In this document: piece after piece, positions 1,681 through 17,600 of the stretch | Numbering within the stretch: position 1 is the stretch's first letter | How the letters are laid out: the number at the start of each line of letters is the position of its first letter | From: Dyella sp. | GTDB lineage: Bacteria; Pseudomonadota; Gammaproteobacteria; Xanthomonadales; Rhodanobacteraceae | Length of the DNA stretch: 64,000 nucleotides | Direction: 5' to 3' | NCBI RefSeq assembly: GCF_035503745.1 | Contig: NZ_DATJTC010000002.1 | Coordinates: forward strand, 14,736 to 78,735 | Notes under the pieces: generated by a model | Databases searched by the model: none | Told to the model about the DNA's origin: nothing | The model's input: only the letters and a program-made list of their open reading frames with translations | Translations under genes and position numbers: made by a program

Positions 1681-1869
1681 CGAAGTGCGGAAAATTAAGG
1701 TTGGGACAAGGACTTATGATAACCCAGCAGGCCTTGTAGGGGGTCGCCTACCTAAACATGGCATGTTTTCTGCTTGCTAATCACCGCACTTTCACGGGCA
1801 GATGCCGCGCAATTCGCGCGCTGAGATAGGGCGACAGGGGCCCCTTCGCGTACCGGGACAGGAAGCAAA

Positions 1870-1902
1870 GACGGCGCCCGAAAGGGCGCCGTCGTTATTT
1901 TT
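1870..1902 (+). terminator. Rho-independent terminator-like hairpin (possibly bidirectional)
   Basis: GACGGCGCCC-GAAA-GGGCGCCGTC followed by GTTATTTTT. Confidence 0.7.
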
Positions 1903-2156
1903 GATCTCTTGCAAGAGAGATCTGGCGCCCGGCGGTCTCAGGAACAGGGGGAATCCAGGATGACCGTGTTGCCGGGCGCCAGAAACTGAAAAACCGTCAC
2001 GCATCACGGGCTGCATGGCAACCATGGCATCCCCTTGGCGTAGGGCGATCATCGCCCCGTACGTGTGAACATTGGGTGACTAAAACGCAAAAATATGCCG
2101 GTATTTGGCAGCTGATGACGTAATAGGTCACAGCGTGATCGAGAGCAAAAATGTTG

Positions 2157-2172
2157 TGTGATGTGCATCACA
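2157..2172. promoter_or_regulatory. CRP/Clp-type binding site
   Basis: Perfect TGTGA-N6-TCACA (TGTGA TGTGCA TCACA). Confidence 0.65.
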
Positions 2173-2175
2173 AGT

Positions 2176-2191
2176 TGGCACGCCTAATGCA
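2176..2191 (+). promoter_or_regulatory. sigma54 (-24/-12) promoter-like element
   Basis: TGGCACG-CCTA-ATGCA, one mismatch to TGGCACG-N4-TTGCW, about 35 bp upstream of an RBS and ATG. Confidence 0.6.
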
Positions 2192-2225
2192 GCGCTTCCG
2201 TGCAAGCAAAAGTCGGAGGGGTGTC

Positions 2226-2411
2226 ATGGATAACAGTAACGAGTTCGCACCGGTTTACCTGCGGCACGATCTGATGATCGAAATCGGTCGCCTTGAAATG
2301 GCGATGGATCATCTGGTCGAGCGCGAGCCTGCCCAACAGCAGCAGCTGCGCCCGCGCCTGGAATCGCGCATGAATCATCTGCTCACCGAGCTGGATCATC
2401 TGCCCGGCTGA
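2226..2411 (+). CDS. small hypothetical protein (61 aa, helical)
   Basis: GGAGGGG RBS before ATG 2226; MDNSNEFAPVYLRHDLMIEIGRLEMAMDHL...; high-GC3 codon usage; followed by a hairpin. Confidence 0.75.
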   Translation: MDNSNEFAPVYLRHDLMIEIGRLEMAMDHLVEREPAQQQQLRPRLESRMNHLLTELDHLPG

Positions 2412-2438
2412 ACAAGCCCTTTTTCAGTGCCGCCCTGC

Positions 2439-2467
2439 GACGGCGCCCCCTGTGGGAGGGCGCCGTC
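2439..2467. terminator. hairpin between convergent genes, same stem as 1870-1893
   Basis: GACGGCGCCC-N9-GGGCGCCGTC. Confidence 0.55.
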
Positions 2468-2493
2468 CAAGTCTCAGGCGGGCGTTAAGAGGC

Positions 2494-5136
2494 TCAGCGC
2501 TGCAGCACGTTGCCGATGATCTCGCCCAGGTTGCGCGATAAGTCCTGCCGCCGGGCCAGATCCTCAAGCGCCGCATGCGCCGCTTCCCGCCGAACCGGCT
2601 CCAGCCGTTGCCACCCGTTGAAGGCCGTGGCCATGCGCGCGGCGATCTGCGGGTTAAGTGCATCCAGCGCGGCCAGCCGTTCGGTCAGCCAGCGATAACC
2701 GGCGCCATCGTCGCGGTGGAAGCCACTGGGATTGTTGCTGGCGAACGCGCCGATCACGGCGCGCGCGCGGTTGGGATTTTTCAGCGTGAAGGCCGGATCG
2801 CTTTCCAATGCCTTGACGATGGCGAGCGCCGGCTCGCCGGGCACCTGCGCCTGCACGGCGAACCATTTATCCAGCGCGAGCGGGTTGTCGGCATAACGCT
2901 GGCGGAAATCCGAAAGCGCCGCCGCGGCCTGCGCCGCGCGATCGCGGACCAGTACGCCCAGTGCGGCGAGGCGGTCGGTCATGCCGCTGGCCGTTGCGTA
3001 TTGCTGCGCCGCCAGCGCATGCGCGCCGTCGGCATCCACCAGGGCCAGCAGTTCGAGCACGCGGCGTTTGAGCCGGCGCCGGGCCTGGCTGTCGGCATCG
3101 AGCGACTGGCCGGCCTGCGATGCCAGTGCGCGATAGCGCGCAAGCAATGCCGGCGCGCCGATGTGTTTGGCCAGATGATGCTGCAACGCCTGGCGTTGCG
3201 CGTGAATGCTGACCGGATCCACTTCGGCCTGGCGATCGGCGAATTCGATTTCGCCGGGCGGTGTAAGCAGATCGGCCAGCAGGGCATCGTCGATCGTGTC
3301 CTGCTCGAACAACACGCCCAAGGCATCGCACCAGGCTTTGCATGCCTGCGTTTCGCCCTCGCGCAAGCTTTCGAACGCAAGCACAGCCAGCTGCTGGCCG
3401 GCCTCCCAGCGATTGAAGCCATCCGCGTCGTGCGTCAACAGCAGCGCCAGTTCGGCCGGCGAGTGGTTGTATTGCAGCACCACGGGCGCTGAGAAGTCGC
3501 GCAGCAACGAAGGTACCGGGTGGCTTGCGACATCGCGGAAAACAAGCTGCTGCGATGCTTTGTCGATCACTACGACCGTTTCCGTGCCGCCGTCGCTTCC
3601 CTCCAGGTGCAGCGGCAGCAACTGTCCGTTGCGATCGAACAGCGATAGCTTCACGGGAATCGGCACGGGTGCTTTCTCCGGCTGTCCGGCCGTGGCGCGC
3701 GTGTGTTGCGAGAGGGTCAGCGTGTATTGGCGTTTGGCCGCGTCGTAGTCGCCGTGCGCGTGCAGATGCGGCGTACCGGCTTGCGCATACCAGGCCAGGT
3801 ACGGCATCAAGTCGGTGCCGTTGGCATCGCCTAGCGCGCCGAGGAAATCCTCGATCGTCGCCGCGCTGCCGTCGTGGCGTTCGAAATAGGTGTCCATGCC
3901 GCGCCGGAAACCTTCAGGTCCAAGCCGGCCCGCGAGCATGCGCACCAGTTCGGAGCCTTTCTCGTAGACGGTGGCGGTGTAGAAGTTGTTGATCTCCCGG
4001 TACTCGGCCGGACGCACCGGGTGCGCCAGGGGGCCTGCGTCTTCGGGAAACTGCGTGCGGCGCAGCAGCGAGACGTCTTCGATGCGCTTGAGCGGCGCGG
4101 AGTTCATGTCCGCGGAAAACTGCTGCTCGCGGAACACGGTAAGGCCCTCCTTCAACGACAGTTGAAACCAGTCGCGGCAGGTCACGCGGTTGCCGGTCCA
4201 GTTATGGAAATACTCGTGGGCGACCACCGCTTCGACGGCGCGGTATTCCTCGTCGGTGCTGCTGTCAGGATCGGCCAGCAGGTACTTCGCGTTGAAGATG
4301 TTCAGGCCCTTGTTTTCCATGGCGCCCATGTTGAAGTCGTGCGTGGCCACGACGTGGAATACATCCAGGTCGTAGTTGCGACCATAGTTGCGCTCGTCCC
4401 AGCGCATCGAGCGTTCCAGCGCATCCAGCGCGTAGTGGCAGCGGTCGATGACGTTCGCTTCGGACCACATCACCAGTTTTACCGCGCGACCGTCCGCCGC
4501 AAGGTAATCGCGCTGAATGCTTTCCAGCCGCCCGGCCACCAGCGCGAACAGGTAGCTCGGTTTGGGATGCGGATCGACGAAGCGCGCCCAATGACGCCCC
4601 TCCGGCAACTCGCCGCTGCCATCGGGATTGCCGCCGGCCAACAGCACGGGAAAGCGTGCGCGATCGGCACGCAGCGTCACAGTGAAACGGGCGAGCACAT
4701 CGGGACGGTCCGGGAAAAAAGTGATGTGACGAAAGCCTTCCGCTTCACATTGGGTCAGAAGGAAGCCGCTCTCGCGCGAACCGGACAGGTACAGGCCCTC
4801 CAGCGTGGTATTGGCGGCCGGCTTAACCCGTACGCGGGTTTCCAGCACGCTGCCATCGTGTGCGCCATCCACTTCCAGCCCGTTGTCGTGGATGCGGTAG
4901 CTGCCCGTATCGAGCGGGCGGCCGTCCAGCGAGATCGCCAACAGCTCCAGGCCCTCGCCATCCAGTCGCAGCGGTTGGGGCTGGGTGGGATCGTGGCGCA
5001 CGTTGAGCCGGGCGCTGATCTCGGTGCTGTCGATGCCCAGGTCGACGTCCAGTTCGATGGCGTCCACGCTCCATGCGGGTCGGCGGTAGTCGTGCAGGCG
5101 GATGGGGGCGGGGGCAGTTTCGTTGGCGAGGGTCAT
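2494..5136 (-). CDS. pepN: aminopeptidase N (M1 family)
   Basis: FLLTQCEAEGFR, FNMGAMENKGLNIFN, HEYFHNWTGNRVTCRDWFQLSLKEG, C-terminal NPNRARAVIG; start taken at MTLANE. Confidence 0.96.
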   Translation of the reverse strand: MTLANETAPAPIRLHDYRRPAWSVDAIELDVDLGIDSTEISARLNVRHDPTQPQPLRLDGEGLELLAISLDGRPLDTGSYRIHDNGLEVDGAHDGSVLETRVRVKPAANTTLEGLYLSGSRESGFLLTQCEAEGFRHITFFPDRPDVLARFTVTLRADRARFPVLLAGGNPDGSGELPEGRHWARFVDPHPKPSYLFALVAGRLESIQRDYLAADGRAVKLVMWSEANVIDRCHYALDALERSMRWDERNYGRNYDLDVFHVVATHDFNMGAMENKGLNIFNAKYLLADPDSSTDEEYRAVEAVVAHEYFHNWTGNRVTCRDWFQLSLKEGLTVFREQQFSADMNSAPLKRIEDVSLLRRTQFPEDAGPLAHPVRPAEYREINNFYTATVYEKGSELVRMLAGRLGPEGFRRGMDTYFERHDGSAATIEDFLGALGDANGTDLMPYLAWYAQAGTPHLHAHGDYDAAKRQYTLTLSQHTRATAGQPEKAPVPIPVKLSLFDRNGQLLPLHLEGSDGGTETVVVIDKASQQLVFRDVASHPVPSLLRDFSAPVVLQYNHSPAELALLLTHDADGFNRWEAGQQLAVLAFESLREGETQACKAWCDALGVLFEQDTIDDALLADLLTPPGEIEFADRQAEVDPVSIHAQRQALQHHLAKHIGAPALLARYRALASQAGQSLDADSQARRRLKRRVLELLALVDADGAHALAAQQYATASGMTDRLAALGVLVRDRAAQAAAALSDFRQRYADNPLALDKWFAVQAQVPGEPALAIVKALESDPAFTLKNPNRARAVIGAFASNNPSGFHRDDGAGYRWLTERLAALDALNPQIAARMATAFNGWQRLEPVRREAAHAALEDLARRQDLSRNLGEIIGNVLQR

Positions 5137-5202
5137 GCGGCACGTGGACAAGGCAAAGTTGGATCAGGCTAACATGCGGGTTTTTCCCGTCGGGACAAGC
5201 GC

Positions 5203-6210
5203 ATGACCGTATTCAGCATCGAGTCGGACCAGCTGGGCGCGCACGAAATACTCGTTTTGCGCGACATTAAGCGTGGTCGCTGCGTCCGCCTGGCGCGCCG
5301 CGGCGCCGTCCTGATCGGTCTGGAGCAGGCGGTGGACGGGGGCGTGCGCCAGCTTGCGGACGGTTATCGGGACAGTGCCGAGCTGGAAAGCCGCCCCAGC
5401 TCGCGCTTCGCCATCATGGCGCCGTTCGCCAATCGCATCGCCGATGCGCGCTACCGCTTCGATGGCCGTGACTACGACCTGCAGCCGGGGGTGGAAGGCG
5501 CGCAACGCGCCGCCCGGCACGGTTTCGTGCGCGGCGTGGATTTCGACGTCGCGCACAAGCATGCGGACGAATCGGGCGCGCATGTCACCTTCGCCACCTC
5601 GGTGATCCGGCCCGGCAAGTTCGACGGCTATCCGTTTGCGGTCGATGTGCTGGTGACCTATACGCTCGATGCCAGCGGACTTACTCTCCAGGCGCACCTG
5701 CGCAACGTCGGCCAAACCGCGGCACCGTGTTTCTTCGGCTGGCATCCGTATTTCCGGCTGGGCGATCAGGGCATCGATGCGTGGGAGCTTACGGTTCCTG
5801 CCACGACGCTGGTGCGCACCGATGGCGATTTCATTCCGCTGCCGGGCGCGCAAGCGTATCAACCGCTCGACGAAGCGCCGCGCGAACTGGACTTCCGTCG
5901 CGCCAGGCCGATCGGTGCCACCGACATCAACCACGCCTACGCGAATCTCGCCAAAGATGCCGATGGCCGCGCGCGCACCAGCCTGCGCGACCCGGTCAGC
6001 GGCATGCGCATCCATGTATGGCAAGAGAGCGGCGTCATGCTGGTGTTCACCGCCGATACGGTGACGCGCGACGCGCGCCGTGCGGTGGCGCTGGAGCCGA
6101 TGGAAAGCATGTCCGACGCCTTCAACCGTGCCGATTGCGCCAGCGCCGTCCGCCTGGAACCGGGCGCGGAGCGGCTGTTTCGCTGCGGCGTGGAGATCGA
6201 CCCGGCATGA
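5203..6210 (+). CDS. aldose 1-epimerase family protein
   Basis: PFANRI..., HG motif, FGWHPYF, VALEP motifs of the galactose mutarotase-like family. Confidence 0.85.
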   Translation: MTVFSIESDQLGAHEILVLRDIKRGRCVRLARRGAVLIGLEQAVDGGVRQLADGYRDSAELESRPSSRFAIMAPFANRIADARYRFDGRDYDLQPGVEGAQRAARHGFVRGVDFDVAHKHADESGAHVTFATSVIRPGKFDGYPFAVDVLVTYTLDASGLTLQAHLRNVGQTAAPCFFGWHPYFRLGDQGIDAWELTVPATTLVRTDGDFIPLPGAQAYQPLDEAPRELDFRRARPIGATDINHAYANLAKDADGRARTSLRDPVSGMRIHVWQESGVMLVFTADTVTRDARRAVALEPMESMSDAFNRADCASAVRLEPGAERLFRCGVEIDPA

Positions 6211-7157
6211 GCGCATCGCTACCCACGCTCCAGCACATTCGCGATGCCGCCGCGCGGATCGCGCCCTACGCCACCCTGACACCGGTGTTGCGCAGCGATG
6301 AACTCGATGCCGTGGCCGGTGCCCAGCTGCACTTCAAATGCGAAAACCTGCAGCGCGGCGGTGCGTTCAAATTCCGCGGCGCGTGCAACGCGGTGTGGTC
6401 GTTGAGCGATGAAGAGGCCGCCCATGGCGTGGTGACGCACTCGTCCGGCAATCACGGCAACGCACTCGCGCTGGCGGCGGCGACGCGCGGCATTCCCGCA
6501 CATGTGGTGGTGCCCGAAGGCGCCGTGCGCGCCAAGCTCGAAGCGATCGAGCGCGCGGGCGCGATCCTGCATCGCTGCGCCCCCACCATCGCCGCGCGCG
6601 AAGCCAAGGCGGCCCAGGTGCAGCAGGCCACGGGAGCGATCATGGTGCATCCCTATGCCGATGCGCGCGTCATGGCCGGGCAGGGCACGCTGGTGCTGGA
6701 GCTGCTGCACCAGTGCGCAAGCCTCGATGCCCTGGTCACGCCGATCGGCGGTGGCGGCCTCTCCGCCGGCTGCGCCATTGCCGCGCACGGTTTGCAGCCA
6801 TCCATCGCGATCTACGGTGCGGAACCGGCCGGCGCGGCCGATACCGCGCAATCGCTGGCGCGCGGCGCGCGCATCGACAGCTTCACGCCGGACACGATGT
6901 GCGACGGCCTGCGCGCTTTCGTCGGCGAACCGAACCTGCAAGCGCTGCGCGAGCATGGCGTCAGCGTCATCACCGTAAGCGACGAGGAAACCGTCGCCGC
7001 AATGCGCCAGCTATGGCAGGCCTTGAAGATCGTGGTGGAAGTGTCGAGCGCCACGGTATTCGCCGCCGTGCTCAAGCAGCGCGAACGTTTCGCCGGCAAA
7101 CGCGTGGGGCTGGTACTTACCGGCGGCAATGTCGATCTTGATGCGCTGCCCTGGTAA
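6207..7157 (+). CDS. PLP-dependent Ser/Thr dehydratase / serine racemase-like protein
   Basis: FKCENLQRGGAFKFRGA, THSSGNHG, GGGGL, LTGGNVD; ATGA overlap with upstream gene; no ACT domain. Confidence 0.9.
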   Translation: MSASLPTLQHIRDAAARIAPYATLTPVLRSDELDAVAGAQLHFKCENLQRGGAFKFRGACNAVWSLSDEEAAHGVVTHSSGNHGNALALAAATRGIPAHVVVPEGAVRAKLEAIERAGAILHRCAPTIAAREAKAAQVQQATGAIMVHPYADARVMAGQGTLVLELLHQCASLDALVTPIGGGGLSAGCAIAAHGLQPSIAIYGAEPAGAADTAQSLARGARIDSFTPDTMCDGLRAFVGEPNLQALREHGVSVITVSDEETVAAMRQLWQALKIVVEVSSATVFAAVLKQRERFAGKRVGLVLTGGNVDLDALPW

Positions 7158-7291
7158 TGGTGCGTCGCATCGCCCGGCGAGCACGTTTTAGCGGTGCGTT
7201 ACTTTCAACCGACCGTGTAGGCGCGGGATTATCCAAACAACTGTCCCTGGCTGGTTTGGCTGGAGCCTGCGCCAAGAGCGTCGAGGGGCGG

Positions 7292-7345
7292 CTCCGCTTT
7301 GTAGAGTCCGTTGATGGGCTTGGCCAGCGCGTAGTCGTAGGAATC
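7292..7345 (-). pseudogene. IS3-family transposase relic
   Basis: Minus strand reads DSYDYALAKPINGLYKAE, close to the conserved DSYDNALAETINGLYKAE motif; flanks are degenerate. Confidence 0.65.
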
Positions 7346-7594
7346 ATGGCATCAATCGGTTGAGACGGTCGGTACGGAGCTGTCGATTCATCCGATCCAG
7401 CGATGACGGCGCGGTCTTGCCACTGAGCGTGGTGCGTATCCTTTGACCCTCTTTCCAAGGCCGCTCTTGTAGGAAAACCCTTATATCCGCGCCAGAAATA
7501 TCGTAACGGTCGCCCTGTAGGCTACTTATCACGATTCCTTCACAAGTTGGTGCTTACGTTTCCCGACATCGCAAGGGGTGGGAAGGACAAGCAA

Positions 7595-7918
7595 ATGGAT
7601 TTGGTTCGGTGCATCCTGCGGATGTGTCTGGGTTGGGCATGGAATGTTCGGGGCAACGCTGCCACCCGTCAGCGATCAAGAATCCCCGGCCCAGGTTTCC
7701 AGCGCTTAGGCGCATTGCTCGCGCTTGCGTTAGTAGCCATCAGCCACCCGGCATCCGTCATGGCGGACAGTGCTTCCTGCATTTCACCCTACGGATGCTT
7801 CTACAGCTTCGAAGGTCAATATGAAAACTGCGTGCAAGACATGCAGGCCGTGACGCATTGGACGCTCATCAAACCTTGCTATCTGCGCGGTTCGCGCGCT
7901 GACTCCGTTAAAGTATGA
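7595..7918 (+). CDS. hypothetical exported Cys-rich protein; possible orphan Rhs N-terminal module
   Basis: AAGGA RBS; hydrophobic LGALLALALVAISHPASVMA then a segment with 4 Cys; ATGA overlap with next ORF. Confidence 0.45.
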   Translation: MDLVRCILRMCLGWAWNVRGNAATRQRSRIPGPGFQRLGALLALALVAISHPASVMADSASCISPYGCFYSFEGQYENCVQDMQAVTHWTLIKPCYLRGSRADSVKV

Positions 7919-8151
7919 AGGCAGGTTTGGACTTTGAGGGGTTCCGAGTACCTAGGGCAGCCTGGTCGTTCAATGGCTCGATCCACGCTTTATTCAACGC
8001 CAGTGCGAGCGGCAGTTGCGACGCGGACGGCAACCAGGTGCAGGGCATGGGCGGATTAGGTATCCAACGGCAGTTAGGTTGCGACGTGATCAATCGCTTG
8101 TGCAAACCATCGACAACTCCAATGACACGAACTGACAGGGATATCAAATGA
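7915..8151 (+). CDS. hypothetical protein (78 aa), ATGA-coupled on both sides
   Basis: Start overlaps the upstream stop and stop overlaps the Rhs start; no clear RBS; may be a frameshifted continuation of the upstream ORF. Confidence 0.3.
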   Translation: MKAGLDFEGFRVPRAAWSFNGSIHALFNASASGSCDADGNQVQGMGGLGIQRQLGCDVINRLCKPSTTPMTRTDRDIK

Positions 8152-11100
8152 CTCGTATTTTTGGACTGATTCTCGGTGCGCTGTTGGCTGTTTCTTGCAG
8201 CGCCATTTCGATAAACGCGCATGCCGCCGATCAATCTGGTACGTATGAGACTCAAGGTGAGGCATATGCAGCGTGTAATGGGTTTGTTGCGTGGTTGAAT
8301 TCGCACGGACCTCTGAGTCCACCTTACTACTACACGTGCGAGGATGTGGTTCGCGGATCTTCTCCGCCTAGTCCACCTTGTCTAGGCAAGCCATTTGAAG
8401 GCGTAAATTACAGCTATGCCTATACGGTTTATTCCGAGCCAAATCATGACGATGGTGGTTGGGCGGGTTGGTACTTCTGGTGCGCTCCTACGTTTAGCCC
8501 AAGCAAGAACAATGGCTGCTCCTGTAGCGTAGCGGGTGACCCCATCAATCTGGGTACCGGTAACGAATACGAGGATCAAAAGGATTACTCATCCAGTGAC
8601 TCTCTACGGTTCGAACGCTACTACAACAGCAGCAATTCGATTACCCCGACCAACATCGGCGCGCAGTGGCTGGATAATTACGACCGCAGCATTCAATATC
8701 AGACCAGCACCACCCCTGTCGCGACTGTTTTTCGACCCGATGGGAAAGAGTTTGCCTTCCAGAAGGTCAATGGGGTGTGGGCCGCTGATCCAGATGTCAG
8801 CGATACGCTCACTGAGAGCGACAATGCCCTAGGCCAGGTTCAAAGCTGGACATATTTCGATGCCCAGACGCAGCAATACGAAAATTACAACGCAGGCGGC
8901 GCGCTAACCTCGATCGTTGATCTGAGCGGTCAAGTTACAACACTGACGTATAGCGATGGGACGACACCCACGACCATCGCACCGATGGCCGGGTTATTGA
9001 TTACCGTCACGGCACCCAGCGGGCGACAGCTCCAGTTCGTTTACAACGCCAGTAGCCAGATCACGCAGATCACCCTGCCTGACGGCGGCACGCTTGCGTA
9101 TGCATACGACACGTCTGGAAACTTGACTCAAGTGACCTATCCGGATGGCCGTACGCGCGTCTACAAGTACGACGAAAGTGGCAATGCCCCATCGGGGTCA
9201 CCGAATCTTTTGACGGGCATTATTGATGAGGCGGGGCAACGCTATGTGGACATCCACTACGACAGCCAGGGTCGTGCCATGTCGTCGCAGATAGGAGGCA
9301 TAGCCAATCTCACTCAGGTGGCTTACAACTCGGATGGAACGTCTGCCGTTACCTATCCGAGCGGAGTCCAAACCACGATTGGATTTGCAACCCCCTATGG
9401 CCGAGCGCAGATCGCGTCAGTGAGCCAGCCTTGCGGACCGGGTTGTGATCAGACGGCGGCGGCGCGTACGTATGACGCCAATGGCAATCCAGCGAGTGCC
9501 ACGGACTTCAACGGCAACGTCACTACCACCACCTACGACGTCAACGGCCTGCTCGATCAACAGATCGACGCGTCCGGATCTCCGGCCCAGCGCACCACCA
9601 ACTTCACCTGGAACACCACACTGCGCGTACCGCTGACGCGCACCGTGCTCGATGCCAACGGCAACACAGTGAGCAACACGCAATGGGTCTACAACGCCAC
9701 CGGCCAGACCCTGGCCCGCTGCGACATCGACCCGGCCAACAGCGCCGATAGCGGCTACAGCTGCTCGAACACCGGCGCGGTGCCGGCCGGCGTGCGCCGC
9801 CGCACCTACACCTACTGCACCGCCGTCGGAAGTAACTGCCCGCTGGTGGGCCTGATGCTCACCGCCACCGGCCCCCGTACCGATCTCACCCAGACGACGA
9901 GCTACAGCTACTACACCAGCAGCAGCACGACGGGTTGCGGCACGCCCGGCGCCGCCTGCTACCAGCCCGGCGATCTCTACCAGGTCACCGACGCCCTGGG
10001 CCACGTCACCACCATCGCCTCCTACGACGCCGACGGCCGCATCACCCGCCTCACCGACGCCAACGGCGTCAACACCGATCTCACCTACACCCCGCGCGGC
10101 TGGCTCGCCTCGCGCACGGTGGGCGGGGCCACCACTCGCTTCACCTATACCGCCTACGGGGCCGTGCAAACCGTCACCGATCCCGATGGCGTCACCACCA
10201 CCTACGGCTACGATGCCGCCCATCGCCTGACCACCATCACCGATGCCCTGGGCAACACCATCCAGTACACCCTGGATGCCGCCGGCGACAAAACCGCCGA
10301 ACAGGTCTATGACTCGTCGGGCACCTTGCACCAAAGCCTCACCCGCACCTTCAACACCCTGGGCCAGCTCACCAGCGTGGTCGATGGGCTTAGCCACACC
10401 GTGTTCAACGCCAGCGCCACGGGCAGCTACGACGCCAACGGCAACCTGATCCAGAGCAGCGACGGCCTGGGCATCGCGCGCCAATTGGGCTACGACGCCC
10501 TGAACCGCCTGGTGCAGACCCTGGACAACTACAACGGCAGCGACCCTGCAACGAAGAACACCACCACCCAGTACAGCTACGACAGCCTGGACCGCCTCAC
10601 CCAGGTCACCGACCCCAGCAACCTCGCCACCACCTACAGCTACGACGGCCTCAGCGACGCCACCGGCCAGGTGAGCCCCGATACGGGCACGACCAGTCGC
10701 ACCTTCGATGCCGCCGGGAATGTGCTGACACGGACCGACGCCAAGGGCATCACCGCCAGCAACACCTACGACGCACTGGATCGGCTTGTCAGCACCCGCT
10801 ACCCCGACAGCACGCAGAACGTTACCTACAGCTACGACGATCCCAACGGCACCACCGGCTGCAGCACCAGCGATCCGGTCGGCCGGTTGACGCGGATCAT
10901 CGAAAGCGCCGTCACCACCGTCTACTGCTACGACGCCCGCGGCAACGTGATCCAGAAACAACAGATCACCAGCGCCGGCACCGACACCACCGGCTACGCC
11001 CTCACCAACGCCGGCCGCCTCAGCGGCATCGTCTACCCCGACAGCACCCTGGTCAGCTACAGCCGGGATGGCGATGGGCGCATCACCGGCATCAGCGTGA

Positions 11101-12614
11101 CGCCGCCCAGCGGCAGCGCCGGCACGGCGGTGAGCGCGGTCACCTACCAGCCCTTTGGCCCGGTCAGCGGCTACACCCTGGGCAACGGCCAGCAGATCGC
11201 CCGCACCTACGACGCCAACTACCGGCTGACGGACCTCACCAGCCCCGCGTTCACCCTGCACGTGGCACGCGATGCGATGGGCGACATCACGGCCATCGGC
11301 AACAGCCCCGGCGCCAGCCCGGCGACGGAGACCTATAGCTACGACCCGCTATACCGCCTCACGGCGGTGACGGAGGCCAACGGCACGACGCTGGAAAGCG
11401 TCACCTACAACCAAACGGGTGATCGCCTGACCAAGACCGGCAGCGGCCTCGCTACCGGCACCTACAGCTACACCCCGAACACGCATCAACTCATTGCCAC
11501 GGGCAACGCCACACGAACGGTCGATGCGGACGGCAACACCACGGCGATCAGCGAAGCCGGCAGCACGTATGGCTTTGGGTACAACGACCGCAACCGCATG
11601 AGCACCGCGCAACTGGGTGGGAGCACGGTTGCCAACTACACCTACAACGCGCTGAACCAGCGCATCCAGAAGGTTGCCGGCAGCAACGCCGAGCGTTACG
11701 ACTACAACGAAGGCAGTGGGATACTTGCCGAATACGGTGCTACCAACCGGGACTATATCTGGATGGATGGCATTCCGGTGGCCAACGTGGACACGGCCAA
11801 TGGCACAAGCACGATCGCTTACGTCACCGCCGACCAGTTAGGCACGCCACGCGCCATTGCAGACAGTTCCGGAAACACCGAGTGGCAGAATGCCTACCAG
11901 GGTAATCCGTGGAACGAAGTAGCGCCGACGAGTAGCGGTTATGTCTATAACCTTGGGTTCCCAGGGCAGTATTTCGACGCCGAAACGGGGCTCAGTTACA
12001 ACGTCAATCGTGATTACGACTCAAGCACTGGGCGGTACGTGCAAAGTGATCCGTTTGGTCTGAATGGTGGTCTAAGTACGTACGCATATGCCATCAGTGA
12101 CCCACTGAGTACATTTGACTCTCTCGGTCTCCGCCCATTGACCGCCGGTGAAGTTGCGATGCTTACTCCGATTTTCAACAATACAGTAAATTTTTCGCAG
12201 GTCGATATCGAATCGGGCACAGATGGTGATTTTCGCGCAGCCATACCACTGGCTAACGGTGATGCCGTAACGATAAACAACACGATTCACTTTCCATCAT
12301 CGCAGTACCTGCCGGACTTCTCACAGGGTGACTTGAGTGATCAGGCGTGGCTTGCACACGAAGTGACACACATTTTTCAGCACCAAAATGAACCGGGCTA
12401 CACATACGGAAAAGCCATGAGAGAAACGTGGAAGTATGGCAAGCATGTCTACGACTACTCGCTGACAGAACACAAATGCTTCACTGATTACCGATACGAG
12501 CAGCAAGCTGCGATAGTCCATGACTACTTCGTTGCCTTGCATCAAGGAACTCCTGATCTGAGCGGATTTGAAAATTTGCTTGGTCCTATGGGCCTTGGCA
12601 TGAACCACAATTAA
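8148..12614 (+). CDS. rhs: Rhs/YD-repeat polymorphic toxin with N-terminal signal peptide, DUF6531-like domain and C-terminal HEXXH metallopeptidase
   Basis: Signal peptide MTRIFGLILGALLAVSCSAISINAHA; GDPINLGTGN...FERYYNS; many YD repeats; core YNLGFPGQYFDAETGLSYNVNRDYD...DPFGL...DSLGL; C-terminal AHEVTH and YEQQA. Confidence 0.93.
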   Translation: MTRIFGLILGALLAVSCSAISINAHAADQSGTYETQGEAYAACNGFVAWLNSHGPLSPPYYYTCEDVVRGSSPPSPPCLGKPFEGVNYSYAYTVYSEPNHDDGGWAGWYFWCAPTFSPSKNNGCSCSVAGDPINLGTGNEYEDQKDYSSSDSLRFERYYNSSNSITPTNIGAQWLDNYDRSIQYQTSTTPVATVFRPDGKEFAFQKVNGVWAADPDVSDTLTESDNALGQVQSWTYFDAQTQQYENYNAGGALTSIVDLSGQVTTLTYSDGTTPTTIAPMAGLLITVTAPSGRQLQFVYNASSQITQITLPDGGTLAYAYDTSGNLTQVTYPDGRTRVYKYDESGNAPSGSPNLLTGIIDEAGQRYVDIHYDSQGRAMSSQIGGIANLTQVAYNSDGTSAVTYPSGVQTTIGFATPYGRAQIASVSQPCGPGCDQTAAARTYDANGNPASATDFNGNVTTTTYDVNGLLDQQIDASGSPAQRTTNFTWNTTLRVPLTRTVLDANGNTVSNTQWVYNATGQTLARCDIDPANSADSGYSCSNTGAVPAGVRRRTYTYCTAVGSNCPLVGLMLTATGPRTDLTQTTSYSYYTSSSTTGCGTPGAACYQPGDLYQVTDALGHVTTIASYDADGRITRLTDANGVNTDLTYTPRGWLASRTVGGATTRFTYTAYGAVQTVTDPDGVTTTYGYDAAHRLTTITDALGNTIQYTLDAAGDKTAEQVYDSSGTLHQSLTRTFNTLGQLTSVVDGLSHTVFNASATGSYDANGNLIQSSDGLGIARQLGYDALNRLVQTLDNYNGSDPATKNTTTQYSYDSLDRLTQVTDPSNLATTYSYDGLSDATGQVSPDTGTTSRTFDAAGNVLTRTDAKGITASNTYDALDRLVSTRYPDSTQNVTYSYDDPNGTTGCSTSDPVGRLTRIIESAVTTVYCYDARGNVIQKQQITSAGTDTTGYALTNAGRLSGIVYPDSTLVSYSRDGDGRITGISVTPPSGSAGTAVSAVTYQPFGPVSGYTLGNGQQIARTYDANYRLTDLTSPAFTLHVARDAMGDITAIGNSPGASPATETYSYDPLYRLTAVTEANGTTLESVTYNQTGDRLTKTGSGLATGTYSYTPNTHQLIATGNATRTVDADGNTTAISEAGSTYGFGYNDRNRMSTAQLGGSTVANYTYNALNQRIQKVAGSNAERYDYNEGSGILAEYGATNRDYIWMDGIPVANVDTANGTSTIAYVTADQLGTPRAIADSSGNTEWQNAYQGNPWNEVAPTSSGYVYNLGFPGQYFDAETGLSYNVNRDYDSSTGRYVQSDPFGLNGGLSTYAYAISDPLSTFDSLGLRPLTAGEVAMLTPIFNNTVNFSQVDIESGTDGDFRAAIPLANGDAVTINNTIHFPSSQYLPDFSQGDLSDQAWLAHEVTHIFQHQNEPGYTYGKAMRETWKYGKHVYDYSLTEHKCFTDYRYEQQAAIVHDYFVALHQGTPDLSGFENLLGPMGLGMNHN

Positions 12615-12628
12615 GAGAGGGACGATTG

Positions 12629-13027
12629 ATGAAGTTCATTTCAAAGGTCTGCGTTGCCCTGTTATTTGTCGTCTTACTTTGCGGGCTCTCATCTCGATTC
12701 GCTATCGTGGTATCTCAGTCACAAGGTCAAGCACCCTCTTTTGTAATCAAAAGGACAAGCCATGGCCTACTTGGTGAAAGCGTTGAAATCAACTCGTTCT
12801 CCGTAGTCAAGAAGAATGACGCCGGGCAGTGGGACTATAAGCATCCCGTCTGGGCATTCGATCTTCCTCCTGGCACGGGAAAAGAGTTGTCAAAAGTCAA
12901 TTATGGCCAAGTCCCTGCGGGTTTCATTGAAAGAACAAAGGCATTAAAGCTAACTAGTGGTATTACATATTTGGTGCTTGGTTTTGGTCTTGGATCTGAT
13001 GGTTCTGTCCAATTCGTTGCCAAATGA
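12629..13027 (+). CDS. candidate cognate immunity protein, exported
   Basis: 14 bp after the Rhs stop, GAGG RBS, N-terminal hydrophobic stretch, low GC. Confidence 0.7.
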   Translation: MKFISKVCVALLFVVLLCGLSSRFAIVVSQSQGQAPSFVIKRTSHGLLGESVEINSFSVVKKNDAGQWDYKHPVWAFDLPPGTGKELSKVNYGQVPAGFIERTKALKLTSGITYLVLGFGLGSDGSVQFVAK

Positions 13028-13045
13028 TCGCGCCACAGGGTGCTG

Positions 13046-13074
13046 AAAAAAAAGCGCCATACGGGCGCTTTTTT
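13046..13074. terminator. bidirectional Rho-independent terminator
   Basis: A-tract AAGCGCC-ATACG-GGCGCTT T-tract. Confidence 0.75.
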
Positions 13075-13131
13075 GTTTTGGAACATCCGATTCCCGGGGG
13101 CAATACTTCGATGCAGACGTAAGCTCCCCCG

Positions 13132-13431
13132 TCAAGCGGACATTTCAGAAGTAGAACTTTTGGCGTAGTGATCGCGATATTCGGCCGGCGTCATAGCGCC
13201 GAGTGCATCATGGGGACGTTGCTCGTTGTAGTCGATGAGGAACTGCCACGTGGCCTCGCGCACGTCGTCGAGACGGGTGAAAAGGTATTGATCGAGCACC
13301 TCTTCACGATAGGTGCGGTTGAAGCGTTCGATGTAAGCGTTCTGGTTCGGCTTTCCCGGCTGGGTGTACCGGATGGCCATGCCATGCGCCTTGGCCCATT
13401 GCGTGAACACTTCGCCAAGGAACTCCGGCCC
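13132..13431 (-). pseudogene. IS3 orfB 3' part (GPEF...GKPNQNAYIERFNRTYREE)
   Basis: Integrase-core C-terminal motifs; separated from the 5' part by IS110. Confidence 0.9.
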
Positions 13432-13523
13432 ATAGTACATCTGGAAGTATGGTTAGCAGATGGGCAGTCACCGTCATTGAGATCATCCTGAGGGTTCTCA
13501 CACGCCTTAGGAGTTCAACGACG

Positions 13524-14801
13524 ATGACTGCCCCTACTGATGCTACGCCCGTTGCCACCTGGGTGGCGATTGATATCGCCAAACGCCACCATGCGGTGTT
13601 GATCGAAGTGCCGGATGAGAAGCGCCGACGTTTTAGGATGGCTAGTTCATCTGAAGATCACCAAGCATTGGTCGCATTGCTCCACTCATTACCTCAGCCC
13701 ATCCGGGTCGCCATGGAGCCGACTGGTGACTGTCACCGCACTTTGGCCTATCGGCTGGTTGATGAAGGTTTTGACGTTTTCCTCGTTTCATCGATTGCCG
13801 GGGCTCGCTATCGAGAGGCCATGTTCAACTCGTGGGACAAGAACGATCCCAAGGACGCAAGCGTGATCATGGCCTTGCTCAAGCAGGGGATGACGATGCG
13901 TTATGTCGATCCACTCGTAGCGGGGCATCATGGCTTGCAGGAGCTGTCCAAAACGTATTACCAGATTAGCCTTGCTCGCACACGGCTGCAGCACAGCCTT
14001 CTAACCCATTACCTTCCACTGTATTTTCCCGAGATGGAGCGCTACTTCAACACGTCTCATGCAGATTGGTTTGTTCGCTTCCTGCTCCGGTTTCCCACTG
14101 CCGCTTCGGTTCATCGACTCGACCGCGAAACCTTCCGGCAACAAGCCTGGGAACTGGTGGGAAGAAAGGTGAATAAGACAACGTGGCTAAGCGAATTGTA
14201 CGATTGTGCAGGCCACAGTATCGGTTTACCCGTTGCTGAGGACTCACTGGCGATCACGACCTTTCGCCTTCAACTTGAGCGATACCAAGTACTGATTGAG
14301 CAGCGCGACGCTTTGTCCGCACAAGCCCATCAACTTTTGAATGGCAACCCCGATTATGACGTCCTGTGTTCTCTCCCAGGCGTGGGACCAGTCATCGCGT
14401 TGACCATCTTGGCTGAGGCCGGCGACATGCGTCGCTTTGCTCATCATCGACAATTTCTCAAGTACTGCGGACTGGACCTGGCCAAGTCTCAATCAGGCGA
14501 ACGCCGCGGTCAGGAGCGCTTGTCCAAACGAGGCAATGCGAGACTCCGTTTTGCCTTTTGGTTTGCGGCCACTATCGCTGTGCGGATGCGTGAAAACAGC
14601 TTCCGAAACAAGTATGAGCGCTATATCCAAAATGACCCGAAAAATGCTGATCGAAAACGTAAGGCGCTCACCGCCGTCGCTGCCAAAATGGCGCGCGTCG
14701 CTTATGGATTAGTCAAGCATCAGACCCTTTACCGCTGTTACTTCGAGACCGCTTTACCCCGTGGATCGATCCCGCTCAGTAGGGCCGTTGGGACCGCTTA
14801 G
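13524..14801 (+). CDS. IS110 family transposase/recombinase (425 aa)
   Basis: AGGAG RBS; DEDD RuvC-like motifs AIDIAK, MEPTG, KNDPKDA; C-terminal LPGVGP...SQSG...SKRGNARLR. Confidence 0.95.
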   Translation: MTAPTDATPVATWVAIDIAKRHHAVLIEVPDEKRRRFRMASSSEDHQALVALLHSLPQPIRVAMEPTGDCHRTLAYRLVDEGFDVFLVSSIAGARYREAMFNSWDKNDPKDASVIMALLKQGMTMRYVDPLVAGHHGLQELSKTYYQISLARTRLQHSLLTHYLPLYFPEMERYFNTSHADWFVRFLLRFPTAASVHRLDRETFRQQAWELVGRKVNKTTWLSELYDCAGHSIGLPVAEDSLAITTFRLQLERYQVLIEQRDALSAQAHQLLNGNPDYDVLCSLPGVGPVIALTILAEAGDMRRFAHHRQFLKYCGLDLAKSQSGERRGQERLSKRGNARLRFAFWFAATIAVRMRENSFRNKYERYIQNDPKNADRKRKALTAVAAKMARVAYGLVKHQTLYRCYFETALPRGSIPLSRAVGTA

Positions 14802-15026
14802 GATCCTGTAGATAATGCTCGGACCTTCCACGGGTTCTCCATGCTGTTTTAGGCACGTTCGAGGCCGCTTCGGACCTCGTGTTCACTATGGTTAGATTAG
14901 GAGACCTTGACGACGTGGAAGCCCATGGGACATCGCGGATGAAGGTTGCGGTAGTTGTCCAACAGACGCTAAAAGCGGCTGCGCATTGCTGTAACCTGAT
15001 TACGTACTTGACTCCAGAGTTAGCAC
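14802..15026 (+). ncRNA. putative bridge/seek RNA in the IS110 downstream non-coding end
   Basis: 225-bp non-coding end; nested stems enclosing an internal loop with segments matching the element's donor junction. Confidence 0.55.
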
Positions 15027-15587
15027 GTTGTCCGTTCGTAGCACTTGAGGCAACGCACGCTCCTGGGCGATACGCTCGAAGATGCGCACCAAGCGTGCCG
15101 ACGTGATCGAGGTATCGATCTCGATATGCACAGCCTCGCGATTAAAGTCATCGACGATGTTGAAGGTACGCAATGGGCGCCCGCAGATCAGGGCATCCAG
15201 CATAAAGTCGGCCGACCACACCATGTCCGGGCGCTCCGGCACGTACAAGGGCACACGTTCACGCTTGGGCAAGCGCCGCGTCGCGGCCCGGCGCAGGTTG
15301 AGTTTCATGTCACAGTACACCCGGTAAATACGCTTGTGGTTCCATTGCGGATGGGTTCTTTCAAGGATCTGGCAACACTTGTCGAAGCCGCGGCTAGGCT
15401 TGGCCTCGATCAACTTGGACAATGCCGCGATAACCTCAGCGTCCCGCACCGTCCAATCCAATGGCGGCGCGTACCACGCCGCGCGGGACAGGCCGACGCA
15501 GTCGCAGGACCGGCGCAAGGGGCGTGCATGCACCTCAACGAGAAAACGCACCGCCTCGCGCTTCTGCGCCGGCCCTACAATTTTTTT
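15027..15587 (-). pseudogene. IS3 orfB 5' part
   Basis: HTH_21-like region, WNHKRIYRVY, WSADF, RTFNIVDDFNRE, QVLRTDN; begins at the A7 slippery site 15581-15587. Confidence 0.9.
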
Positions 15588-15841
15588 GCGATCAGGTCCT
15601 TCATCGCCGCATTGTCCAGCGCCAGCTCGGCATACATTCGCTTGAGCTTGGCGTTCTCCGCTTCCAGCTCCTTGACCCGTTTCAGGTCCGAAGCGTCCAT
15701 GCCCCCGTACTTCGATTTCCACTGGTAGTACGTCGCCGAGCTGATCCCCGCCTGCCGGCACAAATCCTTTACCGGTACACCGGCATCACCCTGCTTGAGA
15801 ATCGAGACGATCTGCGCCTCGCTGAATTTGGATTTCTTCAT
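15575..15841 (-). CDS. IS3 orfA
   Basis: MKKSKFSEAQIVSILKQ...GISSATYYQWKSKYGGM...LKRMYAE; GGAGG RBS. Confidence 0.93.
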   Translation of the reverse strand: MKKSKFSEAQIVSILKQGDAGVPVKDLCRQAGISSATYYQWKSKYGGMDASDLKRVKELEAENAKLKRMYAELALDNAAMKDLIAKKL

Positions 15842-16030
15842 GGAACCTCCTAGCGGAAAAGATGCCAGAAAGTTCTACTTGCTGTGTGTCCAGGAACTGG
15901 GGGAGCTTACGCAGAGACCGGGCTCGAATACAACGGCGCACGCTATTACGACTCGGCGTCGGGACGCTTCCCGCAAGCCGACCCGATGCACATCAAACTG
16001 CTGGGCCAGTTCGGCCGGCGACAGTGATCC

Positions 16031-16187
16031 GCATTCCTATGACCGGTCAATAAATAATCCGGCCGCCAACCTTGCTCAGTTCTAAGCTAGGTATAAGAAC
16101 GGTAATTATGAAGCACAAGCACAGATGTGGCAGAGCTATGTGTATTCGAAGCTAACGGAGTGGAGATGTAAACCAAGCCACGTTTAA
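16031..16187 (+). pseudogene. degenerate C-terminal toxin remnant resembling the Rhs metallopeptidase tail
   Basis: PHSYDRSINNPAANLAQF*ARYKNGNYEAQAQMWQSYVY resembles VYDYSL...YRYEQQAAIVHDYF; in-frame stop at 16083. Confidence 0.45.
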
Positions 16188-16212
16188 TCGAAGGTTCATG
16201 CGAGTGCAAACA

Positions 16213-16569
16213 ATGAACATTGTGAAGAATTTTCTGATATCCGGTGTCGTGATTTTTTCTGCATGTGTCGCACCTGGAGATGGCGTCAAGGCAAAGAGCG
16301 GCTATGCAGCCGCTGCACCTGTGATTAAAGCACTTGACGCGTATCATCAGGTCAATGATGCCTATCCCTCTTCGTTGAATCAGCTAGTTCCAAAGTTCAT
16401 TGCCGGCGATAGGTTGGTAGCTACCACGCCAGATAGAAAAGTAACGCCGTTTAAGTATCGACAAGTCGATAACGGTTATGAGCTATCGTTTTCTTATACG
16501 GGTCCCGGTACGAACCAATGTGTGTACAGGGAAAGTGCCAAAGCGTGGAAATGCTACGGCGCTTACTAG
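16213..16569 (+). CDS. lipoprotein with GspG/pilin-like helix; orphan immunity candidate
   Basis: Lipobox-like IFSAC; IKALDAYHQVNDAYPSSLNQLV; C-terminal Cys pair; low GC. Confidence 0.65.
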   Translation: MNIVKNFLISGVVIFSACVAPGDGVKAKSGYAAAAPVIKALDAYHQVNDAYPSSLNQLVPKFIAGDRLVATTPDRKVTPFKYRQVDNGYELSFSYTGPGTNQCVYRESAKAWKCYGAY

Positions 16570-16816
16570 GACTGCCCGAACACCATAAGCGGTCGTGCCA
16601 CGGAAAACCGTTGCGATCGGTGCATTACGGTGAGCAGAAATTCATACAGCAACACTCTCTATAAAAACATTGAAAATTTTCTCGGCCGCACGATGACAAC
16701 GACGATTGCCGATAAGGCGCAAGATCGCTCATCCCTGGGTCTTGGCTGTTGCCCTTTGATCAGCCGCTTGGAACACTCGTGACCTGCTACGGAAAATTGG
16801 TCGTACCACCAGGAAA

Positions 16817-17173
16817 ATGGCGCATATGTCACCGACATTGAGGGGTGGGCTGATATCCATTTTCCTGACCGCTGTCGCGTTCGTCGCGGCAGTTCAATGT
16901 GCTTACACTTTTGGTCAGCTCTATCACGTCGCGATCATGGCGTATAAAACAGGAGAAGTGCAGCCGCATCTGGTTAGCTTCGGCCGACTTGGCGTTTATT
17001 CATATTTTTCATTGGCAACCATTATCGCGGTCACAATGCTTTTATTCATAAAGTCTAAAGGAGGCGTTAGGCGTGCAAAGGTCGCCAGCGCGTTCTTAAT
17101 AATCTCTCTCGTCAGTGCCGCTGTCTTCGCGGTGCTGGTCCTACTCCCGGTCTCTGATGTGGTCATTAGGTAG
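16817..17173 (+). CDS. small membrane protein (about 3 TM); orphan immunity candidate
   Basis: AGGA RBS; three hydrophobic segments; low GC; co-oriented in the Rhs tail. Confidence 0.6.
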   Translation: MAHMSPTLRGGLISIFLTAVAFVAAVQCAYTFGQLYHVAIMAYKTGEVQPHLVSFGRLGVYSYFSLATIIAVTMLLFIKSKGGVRRAKVASAFLIISLVSAAVFAVLVLLPVSDVVIR

Positions 17174-17408
17174 CCGCAAAGCGCTCCTACACCGTTCGGT
17201 TTTCGCGACAAGAACAACGAGAACAAAGGAGTCAGAACCTGAGGTTTCCCAGCGTTTCATGCTGTCGCTGTCATCTGGTCTGGTCCCTTTGTTAAATGTG
17301 ACTGTCGGGATGTCTGTTCCCCTGCAAGGAGAGTCCCATTCTCGAACGCAAGTGCAGCTCGCAATAAACACGTGGCTTATCCCCATAACTCAATTTCGAG
17401 AAGAGGTT

Positions 17409-17600
17409 ATGATCAAAAATAAGATAGCGGAGAGTGAAATTAGCGCTCTGATGCTTGAGATAAATGCAAAACTGAATGAGTCCGTTCGAGGGGTTCAAGA
17501 GACCTGTGACGACGATGATTTCAGAGCCTATCGACGAGCGGTTGGGGAAATTATGGGCGAGATTTTATTTGAGATTGCCAAAAGGGGAGAGTTGCGGTGA
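17409..17600 (+). CDS. small helical protein, probably C-terminally truncated at the island border
   Basis: AGAGG RBS; MIKNKIAESEISALMLEINAKLNESV...FRAYRRAVGEIMGEILFE, then runs into the tag RBS. Confidence 0.55.
   Translation: MIKNKIAESEISALMLEINAKLNESVRGVQETCDDDDFRAYRRAVGEIMGEILFEIAKRGELR

Follow-up and report, generated by a model that had tools for sequence, protein, structure and literature searches.

Rhs toxins are the textbook case of C-terminal polymorphism, and their front ends have usually been treated as fixed delivery handles. WapA of B. subtilis is a Sec-exported one-piece toxin with an N-terminal signal peptide and a DUF6531 domain. A Sec-type Rhs/WapA toxin is likewise known from S. 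suis (WapA; PMC12704120), displaced orphan rhs-CT/immunity modules have been described downstream of main rhs genes, for example in Salmonella Typhimurium (PMC3967940), and Yersinia entomophaga has several alternative partners for one Tc shell component (PMC11067744). Our literature search gave no account of an Rhs shell divided between two signal-peptide genes, or of arrays of upstream N-terminal modules, and the split Rhs organisation that we observe in Rhodanobacteraceae is apparently undescribed. In the 64,000-nucleotide stretch of Dyella sp. DNA analysed here (the window), two small ORFs lie directly upstream of an intact Rhs gene. We find that they are very probably the two surviving ends of one front-half Rhs pseudogene, a class of gene that is intact and under selection in relatives.

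Two small ORFs upstream of the window's Rhs gene

The original prediction had noted two small ORFs chained to the Rhs gene by ATGA overlaps, at 7915-7918 (ORF1 stop and ORF2 start) and at 8148-8151 (ORF2 and Rhs), and its coordinates and quoted peptide strings were all found in the window. The two ORFs lie at the left edge of a low-GC island of approximately 7150-17600, with 46-59% GC compared to ~67% outside and GC content falling from ~7000 onwards. The island contains an intact 1488-aa Rhs gene, a candidate immunity gene, and IS-disrupted orphan material. The features of the locus are as follows:

7344-7450, minus strand: IS3-family transposase fragment (OrfB region), from a blastn match to the genome's own contig C36 (163425-163493)
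7595 (ATG) or 7547 (TTG) to 7918, plus strand: ORF1, from reading of the sequence
7595-7885, plus strand: probable front-half Rhs 5′ relic (ORF1 minus its tail), from tblastn with the D. nitratireducens 804-aa front half
7886-7971, plus strand: probable deletion scar, ~85 nt of unassignable sequence with no match to aa 79-750 of intact front halves
7915-8151, plus strand: ORF2, from reading of the sequence
7972-8135, plus strand: probable front-half Rhs 3′ relic, the last 55 codons, from BLASTP, six-frame comparison and DNA alignment
8136-8147, plus strand: 12-nt spacer, from pairwise DNA alignment with Rhodanobacter lycopersici
8148-12614, plus strand: Rhs gene, by sequence reading, encoding a one-piece signal-peptide Rhs toxin of 1488 aa (Pfam, NCBIfam)
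12626-13027, plus strand: candidate exported immunity protein of the one-piece Rhs, from an N-terminal hydrophobic segment and a position directly after the toxin gene

The IS3-family fragment marks the decayed left edge of the island; the C36 frame that it matches contains PLDRVNRQFRTDIPDRLWISDHT, which we take to be an IS3 OrfB motif. The extent of this fragment has also been given as 7290-7450 on the minus strand. The candidate immunity protein had no Pfam family match. Further into the island, after IS3/IS110 insertions, the fragment GLEYNGARYYDSASGRFPQADP at 15884-16027 carries the Rhs-associated core motif and looks like a broken downstream orphan tip.

The ORF1 region has a start codon, a leader of the MD.V.CIL type, a signal peptide (...SHPASVMA-D), and the first ~40 residues of a Cys-containing head, which is kept only as far as the PCYL block. 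It is matched best by an 804-aa Dyella nitratireducens gene, whose aa 1-78 align by tblastn with window 7595-7885 from the first Met (42% identity, E 7e-20). When ORF1 is aligned with six other heads of the same type, Met1, two Cys, and the PCYL block are conserved. The original prediction took ORF1 for an older Rhs-type N-terminal module and proposed looking for homologues fused to DUF6531-YD cores. Both expectations were borne out: ORF1 homologues are the N-termini of DUF6531 plus YD-repeat proteins in the same genus, and among 60 related genomes the significant matches all begin long open frames (807, 836, 846, 851, and, in one case, 1532 aa). The head itself has no intact close orthologue, the best being 42-48% identical, and the deletion end points given above are therefore approximate. 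There is no paralogue of ORF1 in its own genome, and a search of genome contigs with ORF1 gave no confirmed relative. An HMMER search of the whole library with ORF1 as query returned 0 hits, likely because the 50%-identity cluster representatives bear other heads.

A parallel had also been drawn between ORF1 and the start of the window's Rhs. The two do have a motif in common, but the resemblance is statistically weak, with 11/24 identities lying inside the signal peptides (BLASTP, E 0.14). Profile-profile comparison of ORF1-type heads with heads of the window's Rhs type, another of the checks proposed, aligned only the 15-column motif G..YS.E.AY..C at a probability of 18%. We read this as a motif that the two head types appear to share and do not claim homology.

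ORF2 was compared with the Rhs gene next to it. By BLASTP, its aa 20-64 match aa 746-790 of that Rhs with 26/45 identities (58%, E 3e-14). In a six-frame comparison the similarity resumes in a different frame at 8100-8132 (LVQTIDNSNDTN and then a stop), which reads VQTIDNSNDTN followed by TGA at 8133-8135 and aligns onto Rhs aa 788-799 (LVQTLDNYNGSD). DNA alignment with five intact gene ends places a 1-nt deletion between 8099 and 8100, seen as a single-base gap ahead of the conserved stop plus CAGGG (TGACAGGG). The D. nitratireducens 804-aa gene shows the same break: its aa 751-793 match window 7972-8100 with 63% identity, and its aa 793-804 match window 8097-8132 in the shifted frame with 83% identity. 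Overall, the 3′ relic is 78% identical in nucleotides to the intact 3′ end (E 1e-29). Intact front-half genes end in ...LVQTIDNYNGTN followed by TGA and CAGGG, and 8100-8135 has this ending in degenerate sequence, aligning column by column with the five intact ends and with R. lycopersici.

On these alignments, ORF2 corresponds to a YD segment from the mid-shell, read after a frameshift. Its last 17 residues translate conserved YD sequence in the wrong frame, and both the tail (CKPSTTPMTRTDRDIK) and the overlap with the start of Rhs stem from the frameshift. The ATGA chaining to Rhs might imply coupling, but ORF1 and ORF2 are not a coupled pair: the chaining is no sign of function, and the overlap with Rhs is accidental. 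The proposed likeness of ORF2 to a motif just before DUF6531 did not hold either, as SCDADGNQV against SCSVAGDPI scores 11.9 bits with E 27. ORF2 thus has a similarity to Rhs that is far beyond chance but is other than had been described: rather than an N-terminal piece, it would comprise the last 55 codons of a lost gene, from the middle of the shell.

Since ORF1 and ORF2 match aa 1-78 and aa 751-804 of one and the same gene, we take them to be two ends of one gene. No significant match to the counterpart of intact front-half aa 79-750 was found in the window, where ~672 codons are missing (for the remainder of the head, DUF6531, and most of the YD repeats) and ~85 nt stand in their place. 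The 3′ relic differs from the consensus of 11 intact genes at 44/164 nt, compared to 9-29 in the intact genes themselves; 11 of its changes are at codon position 2, compared to 0-5 in intact genes, and both of its YD motifs have a Tyr-to-Cys change. This substitution pattern indicates relaxed constraint, as read from the alignment. The uninterrupted 790-888-aa frame with DUF6531 and YD repeats that characterises front-half genes is absent from the relic. Pfam and NCBIfam gave no match for ORF1 or ORF2, and their exact sequences are absent from a 15-billion-protein collection. Neither ORF has the Rhs-associated core or the C-terminal toxin and immunity gene of a one-piece Rhs toxin, and Pfam and NCBIfam find no adaptor or chaperone domain in them of the kind borne by T6SS accessory genes (PAAR, EagR/DUF1795, DUF4123). 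The relic is almost certainly inert, without protein function today, and would at most serve the Rhs gene as a promoter region or transcribed leader of ~550 nt. ORF1, which retains a start codon, a signal peptide, and three conserved cysteines, could yield a short exported peptide.

Front-half and back-half genes in relatives

The intact front halves of D. nitratireducens, D. lipolytica, and a Dyella MAG begin with a leader and a signal peptide, continue with a variable Cys-containing head, DUF6531, and YD repeats, and all end in DNYNGTN plus TGA. In all 11 loci with enough flanking sequence (11/11) the frame is intact and measures 790-888 aa. DUF6531 and RHS repeats are the only Pfam families above thresholds in front halves, which have no Rhs-associated core, toxin, or immunity gene; these are present with the back halves and with the window's Rhs. 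The heads are of at least six unrelated types, and head types are mixed between one-piece and split genes. The gene that follows a front half is either another front half (a tandem pair, ~2.5 kb apart) or a back-half gene, as in the Dyella MAG, where frames of 834 aa and 828 aa are followed by a back half. The back-half gene encodes 679-763 aa: a conserved MDQG... leader and a classical signal peptide (...AAPVAAQ-TANTK) are followed by what remains of the YD shell, by the Rhs-associated core, and by a toxin tip that varies. In D. nitratireducens DHG59, a front half at 3985-6396 of locus L029 and a back half at 1839-3875 both lie on the minus strand. When mapped on the window's one-piece Rhs, the front halves extend to aa 799 and the back halves, past their signal peptide, begin at aa 802, with no overlap. 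The two genes therefore equal one Rhs with a single fixed cut. The split is genuine and not read-through, because stops interrupt the in-frame continuation and the back half starts with a signal peptide of its own.

TGA read-through or a fixed programmed frameshift was considered for the junction and ruled out: relative to the front half, the frame of the back half is +1 at most loci but +2 at others.

Tandem arrays of at least two intact front halves with unrelated heads were observed in D. nitratireducens, the Dyella MAG, D. monticola, D. agri, D. humi, and one further locus (L031). D. monticola has at least three front halves in a row, plus a 5′-truncated remnant (a 163-170-aa frame) at the upstream end; its arrays are split over several small contigs and their length is a lower bound. 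The N-terminal polymorphism that the original prediction anticipated is in this respect real, as relatives have arrays of upstream modules with unrelated heads.

Between the front-half TGA and the back-half signal peptide (loci L013-L032) lies a conserved leader of ~100 nt that encodes (A)MDQG(H/Q)xVK..., and second front halves are likewise preceded by it (MDMDQGR...). This segment may be either an unusually long N-region of the signal peptide or a conserved regulatory or recombination segment. In D. nitratireducens, short pieces similar to the IS3-family fragment of the window were found downstream of a back-half gene (locus L029, 686-764 and 1045-1097).

The end motif DNYNGTN plus TGA was found at 22 sites in 9/26 genomes of the genus. 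In a sample of 401 genomes from 99 genera of the order, only one further genus has it, the one containing D. agri. Among 185,579 species, represented by one genome each, it was found only in Dyella spp., Rhodanobacter lycopersici, and Fulvimonas soli, all of them Rhodanobacteraceae. We calculated dN/dS (Nei-Gojobori) for front halves and obtained 0.09-0.25. A paralogue pair in D. choica is unsaturated, with a dS of 0.21 and a ratio of 0.11 (0.29 for the head), and the upstream, non-adjacent copies in two arrays gave 0.12. Back halves gave 0.12-0.16. By these ratios, both front-half and back-half genes are maintained by purifying selection. Front- and back-half genes form a conserved, selected two-gene architecture with front-half arrays.

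A counterpart of the window's arrangement is in R. lycopersici, where an intact 802-aa front half is followed by TGACAGGG, a ~155-nt leader (MDMDQGQ...), and a gene with the head type of the window's Rhs. This downstream gene is 61% identical to window Rhs aa 2-494. The 12-nt spacer of the window sits where R. lycopersici has its ~155-nt leader, and after the indel both read ACTCGTATTTTTGGACTG. Because the sequences match on both sides of the indel, the window keeps the layout of a front half followed by the next Rhs gene.

In the window, that next gene is an intact one-piece Rhs that is unbroken across the split point at aa 799/802. It starts with a signal peptide and DUF6531, continues through the YD shell to the Rhs-associated core (Pfam, NCBIfam), and ends in a zinc-metallopeptidase-like tip. 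The tip (12132-12611) resembles the P. aeruginosa VgrG2b metallopeptidase effector domain (6h56, E 1e-9). Over aa ~540 to 1330, the protein is ~88% identical, as estimated from the alignment, to a one-piece paralogue in D. nitratireducens whose tip is of the same family and which has no front-half end within 12 kb upstream. Neither a back-half gene nor a back-half leader was found in the 99%-complete assembly of the window's genome, whose 48 contigs leave gaps that may hold a back-half gene.

Alternative origins and decay of the relic

Could the relic be the former N-terminus of the present Rhs gene, pushed upstream when an incoming module recombined into the gene, in a mirror image of the C-terminal orphan tips? 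The present gene looks like a recombinant mosaic. Its N-terminal third is foreign-looking, with 53% GC in the first ~450 codons (8148-9500) and 67% in the core (9500-11500). Recombination in the shell is plausible, with the N-terminal third 22-55% identical to the front halves sampled and aa 600-800 75-94% identical, and one-piece and split genes do mix head types. However, a displaced piece would end at an arbitrary recombination point, without the last 55 front-half codons that the relic retains, and the relic's own stop falls exactly at the stop site of intact front halves and is followed by the conserved CAGGG. Additionally, R. lycopersici and the Dyella MAG have the two-gene layout with an intact upstream gene, and no relative so far has the 3′ end of the relic running in frame into a full shell that lacks the TGA. 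We consider such an origin very unlikely. What stands of the displaced, frameshifted earlier N-terminus that had been predicted is a decayed N-terminal module; it belonged to a separate upstream gene with its own conserved stop and not to an earlier version of the present Rhs start.

It is less likely again that ORF1 and ORF2 are functional small genes, such as an exported adaptor or chaperone and its partner, translationally coupled to Rhs through the ATGA overlaps. The last 17 residues of ORF2 are out of frame, the 60 relatives have no small-ORF homologues, with all significant matches in frames of at least 800 aa, no entries exist in Pfam, NCBIfam, or the protein collection, and the substitutions show relaxed constraint. 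These outweigh the presence of both overlaps, the start codon and plausible signal peptide of ORF1, and a weak SD-like GGGA before the Rhs start. An assembly artefact could also be imagined, in which a collapsed repeat merged an intact front-half shell with the downstream Rhs, given a 48-contig draft and the long similar shell segments common to front-half and one-piece genes. The 3′ relic is nevertheless too diverged for collapse, with 71% DNA identity to the matching Rhs segment and with its own frameshift and Tyr-to-Cys changes, and unique sequence separates the copies, which are 2.4 kb apart on the same contig, leaving this explanation with a negligible probability.

A decayed front-half gene very probably accounts for the locus, in the following way. 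The ancestor encoded a leader, a Sec signal peptide, a small Cys-containing head, DUF6531, and a YD-repeat shell of ~650 residues with the fixed end ...LVQTIDNYNGTN and TGA. It stood directly ahead of the following Rhs gene, an arrangement still seen for intact copies in Dyella, Rhodanobacter, and Fulvimonas. About 2 kb, the equivalent of aa 79-750, were lost from its interior, and the later loss of 1 nt put the last 12 codons out of frame. What was left has drifted, with conserved YD tyrosines changed to cysteines and an excess of changes at second codon positions. As the window's genome has a one-piece downstream gene and no back-half gene was found in it, the front half may have been left without a partner and decayed; we infer an order in which the downstream gene became one-piece and decay came after.

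In relatives, the front half would be exported as one protein and the back half, with a separate signal peptide ahead of the remaining shell, the Rhs core, and the toxin, as another; the two would form one cocoon, and alternative front halves would share one back half. An AlphaFold model of a front half as a single chain has a pLDDT of 64, with a head composed of a helix (53-63) and three strands (71-113) at pLDDT 46-63; the relic would lack most of this predicted head domain. By Foldseek, the front-half model groups with the shells of Rhs, teneurin, and Tc proteins, which speaks to an Rhs-type sheet only. The back-half single chain reached a pLDDT of 49, too poor for use. Our wider proposal is tentative: Rhs toxins of Rhodanobacteraceae may routinely be made as two Sec-exported half-shells, with interchangeable, selected front halves bearing different heads that would give a combinatorial N-terminal polymorphism, and ORF1 and ORF2 of the window would be the fossil of such an array.

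Comparison with known systems

The relic points to a lineage in which the front end of Rhs is modular, with selected signal-peptide half-shell genes that carry unrelated heads and stand singly or in tandem. If the halves assemble, an Rhs cocoon could be built in trans outside the Tc toxins, and the system would offer a natural setting for the roles of head domains in receptor choice, export, or entry. The split point would then also tell protein engineers where the shell tolerates cutting. For annotation, this explains why many of the 'Rhs family proteins' of ~800 aa and ~700 aa in these genomes are no artefacts of truncation, and the two small ORFs of the window are best labelled as a pseudogene.

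The window's intact Rhs gene (8148-12614) is of the Sec-exported Rhs/WapA kind, in which a signal peptide replaces the PAAR/VgrG adaptors and is followed by DUF6531, the YD shell, the Rhs core, a variable tip, and an immunity gene. What distinguishes the relic and its intact counterparts is that they break off mid-shell, with the remainder led by a second signal peptide.

Orphan rhs-CT modules resemble the front halves as an extra partial Rhs module beside a main gene, with a conserved shell segment as a possible recombination handle and one end of the toxin diversified. Unlike these orphans, front halves lie upstream and supply the N-terminal end (signal peptide, head, plug, and half shell) without a toxin or immunity gene. 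The orphans are silent, start-less fragments with variable break points, whereas the front halves of relatives are complete genes with their own start and signal peptide and with one fixed end codon, and their maintenance, seen as low dN/dS, sets them apart from the silent C-terminal modules. The relic, too, is unlike an orphan rhs-CT/immunity module: it lies upstream, has no toxin or immunity gene, and keeps a start codon and signal peptide.

The Tc toxin BC complex (TcB plus TcC; 4o9x, 4igl) is likewise a YD/Rhs cocoon from two genes, of which the second bears the Rhs core and a variable toxin. By Pfam, the front halves do not have the beta-propeller of TcB, and in split Rhs each half has its own Sec signal peptide. 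The split-Rhs halves, whose assembly into one cocoon is a prediction, are colinear with ordinary one-piece bacterial Rhs proteins. Finally, the variable partner in the split-Rhs arrays is the front half and not, as in the Tc toxins, the toxin-bearing half.
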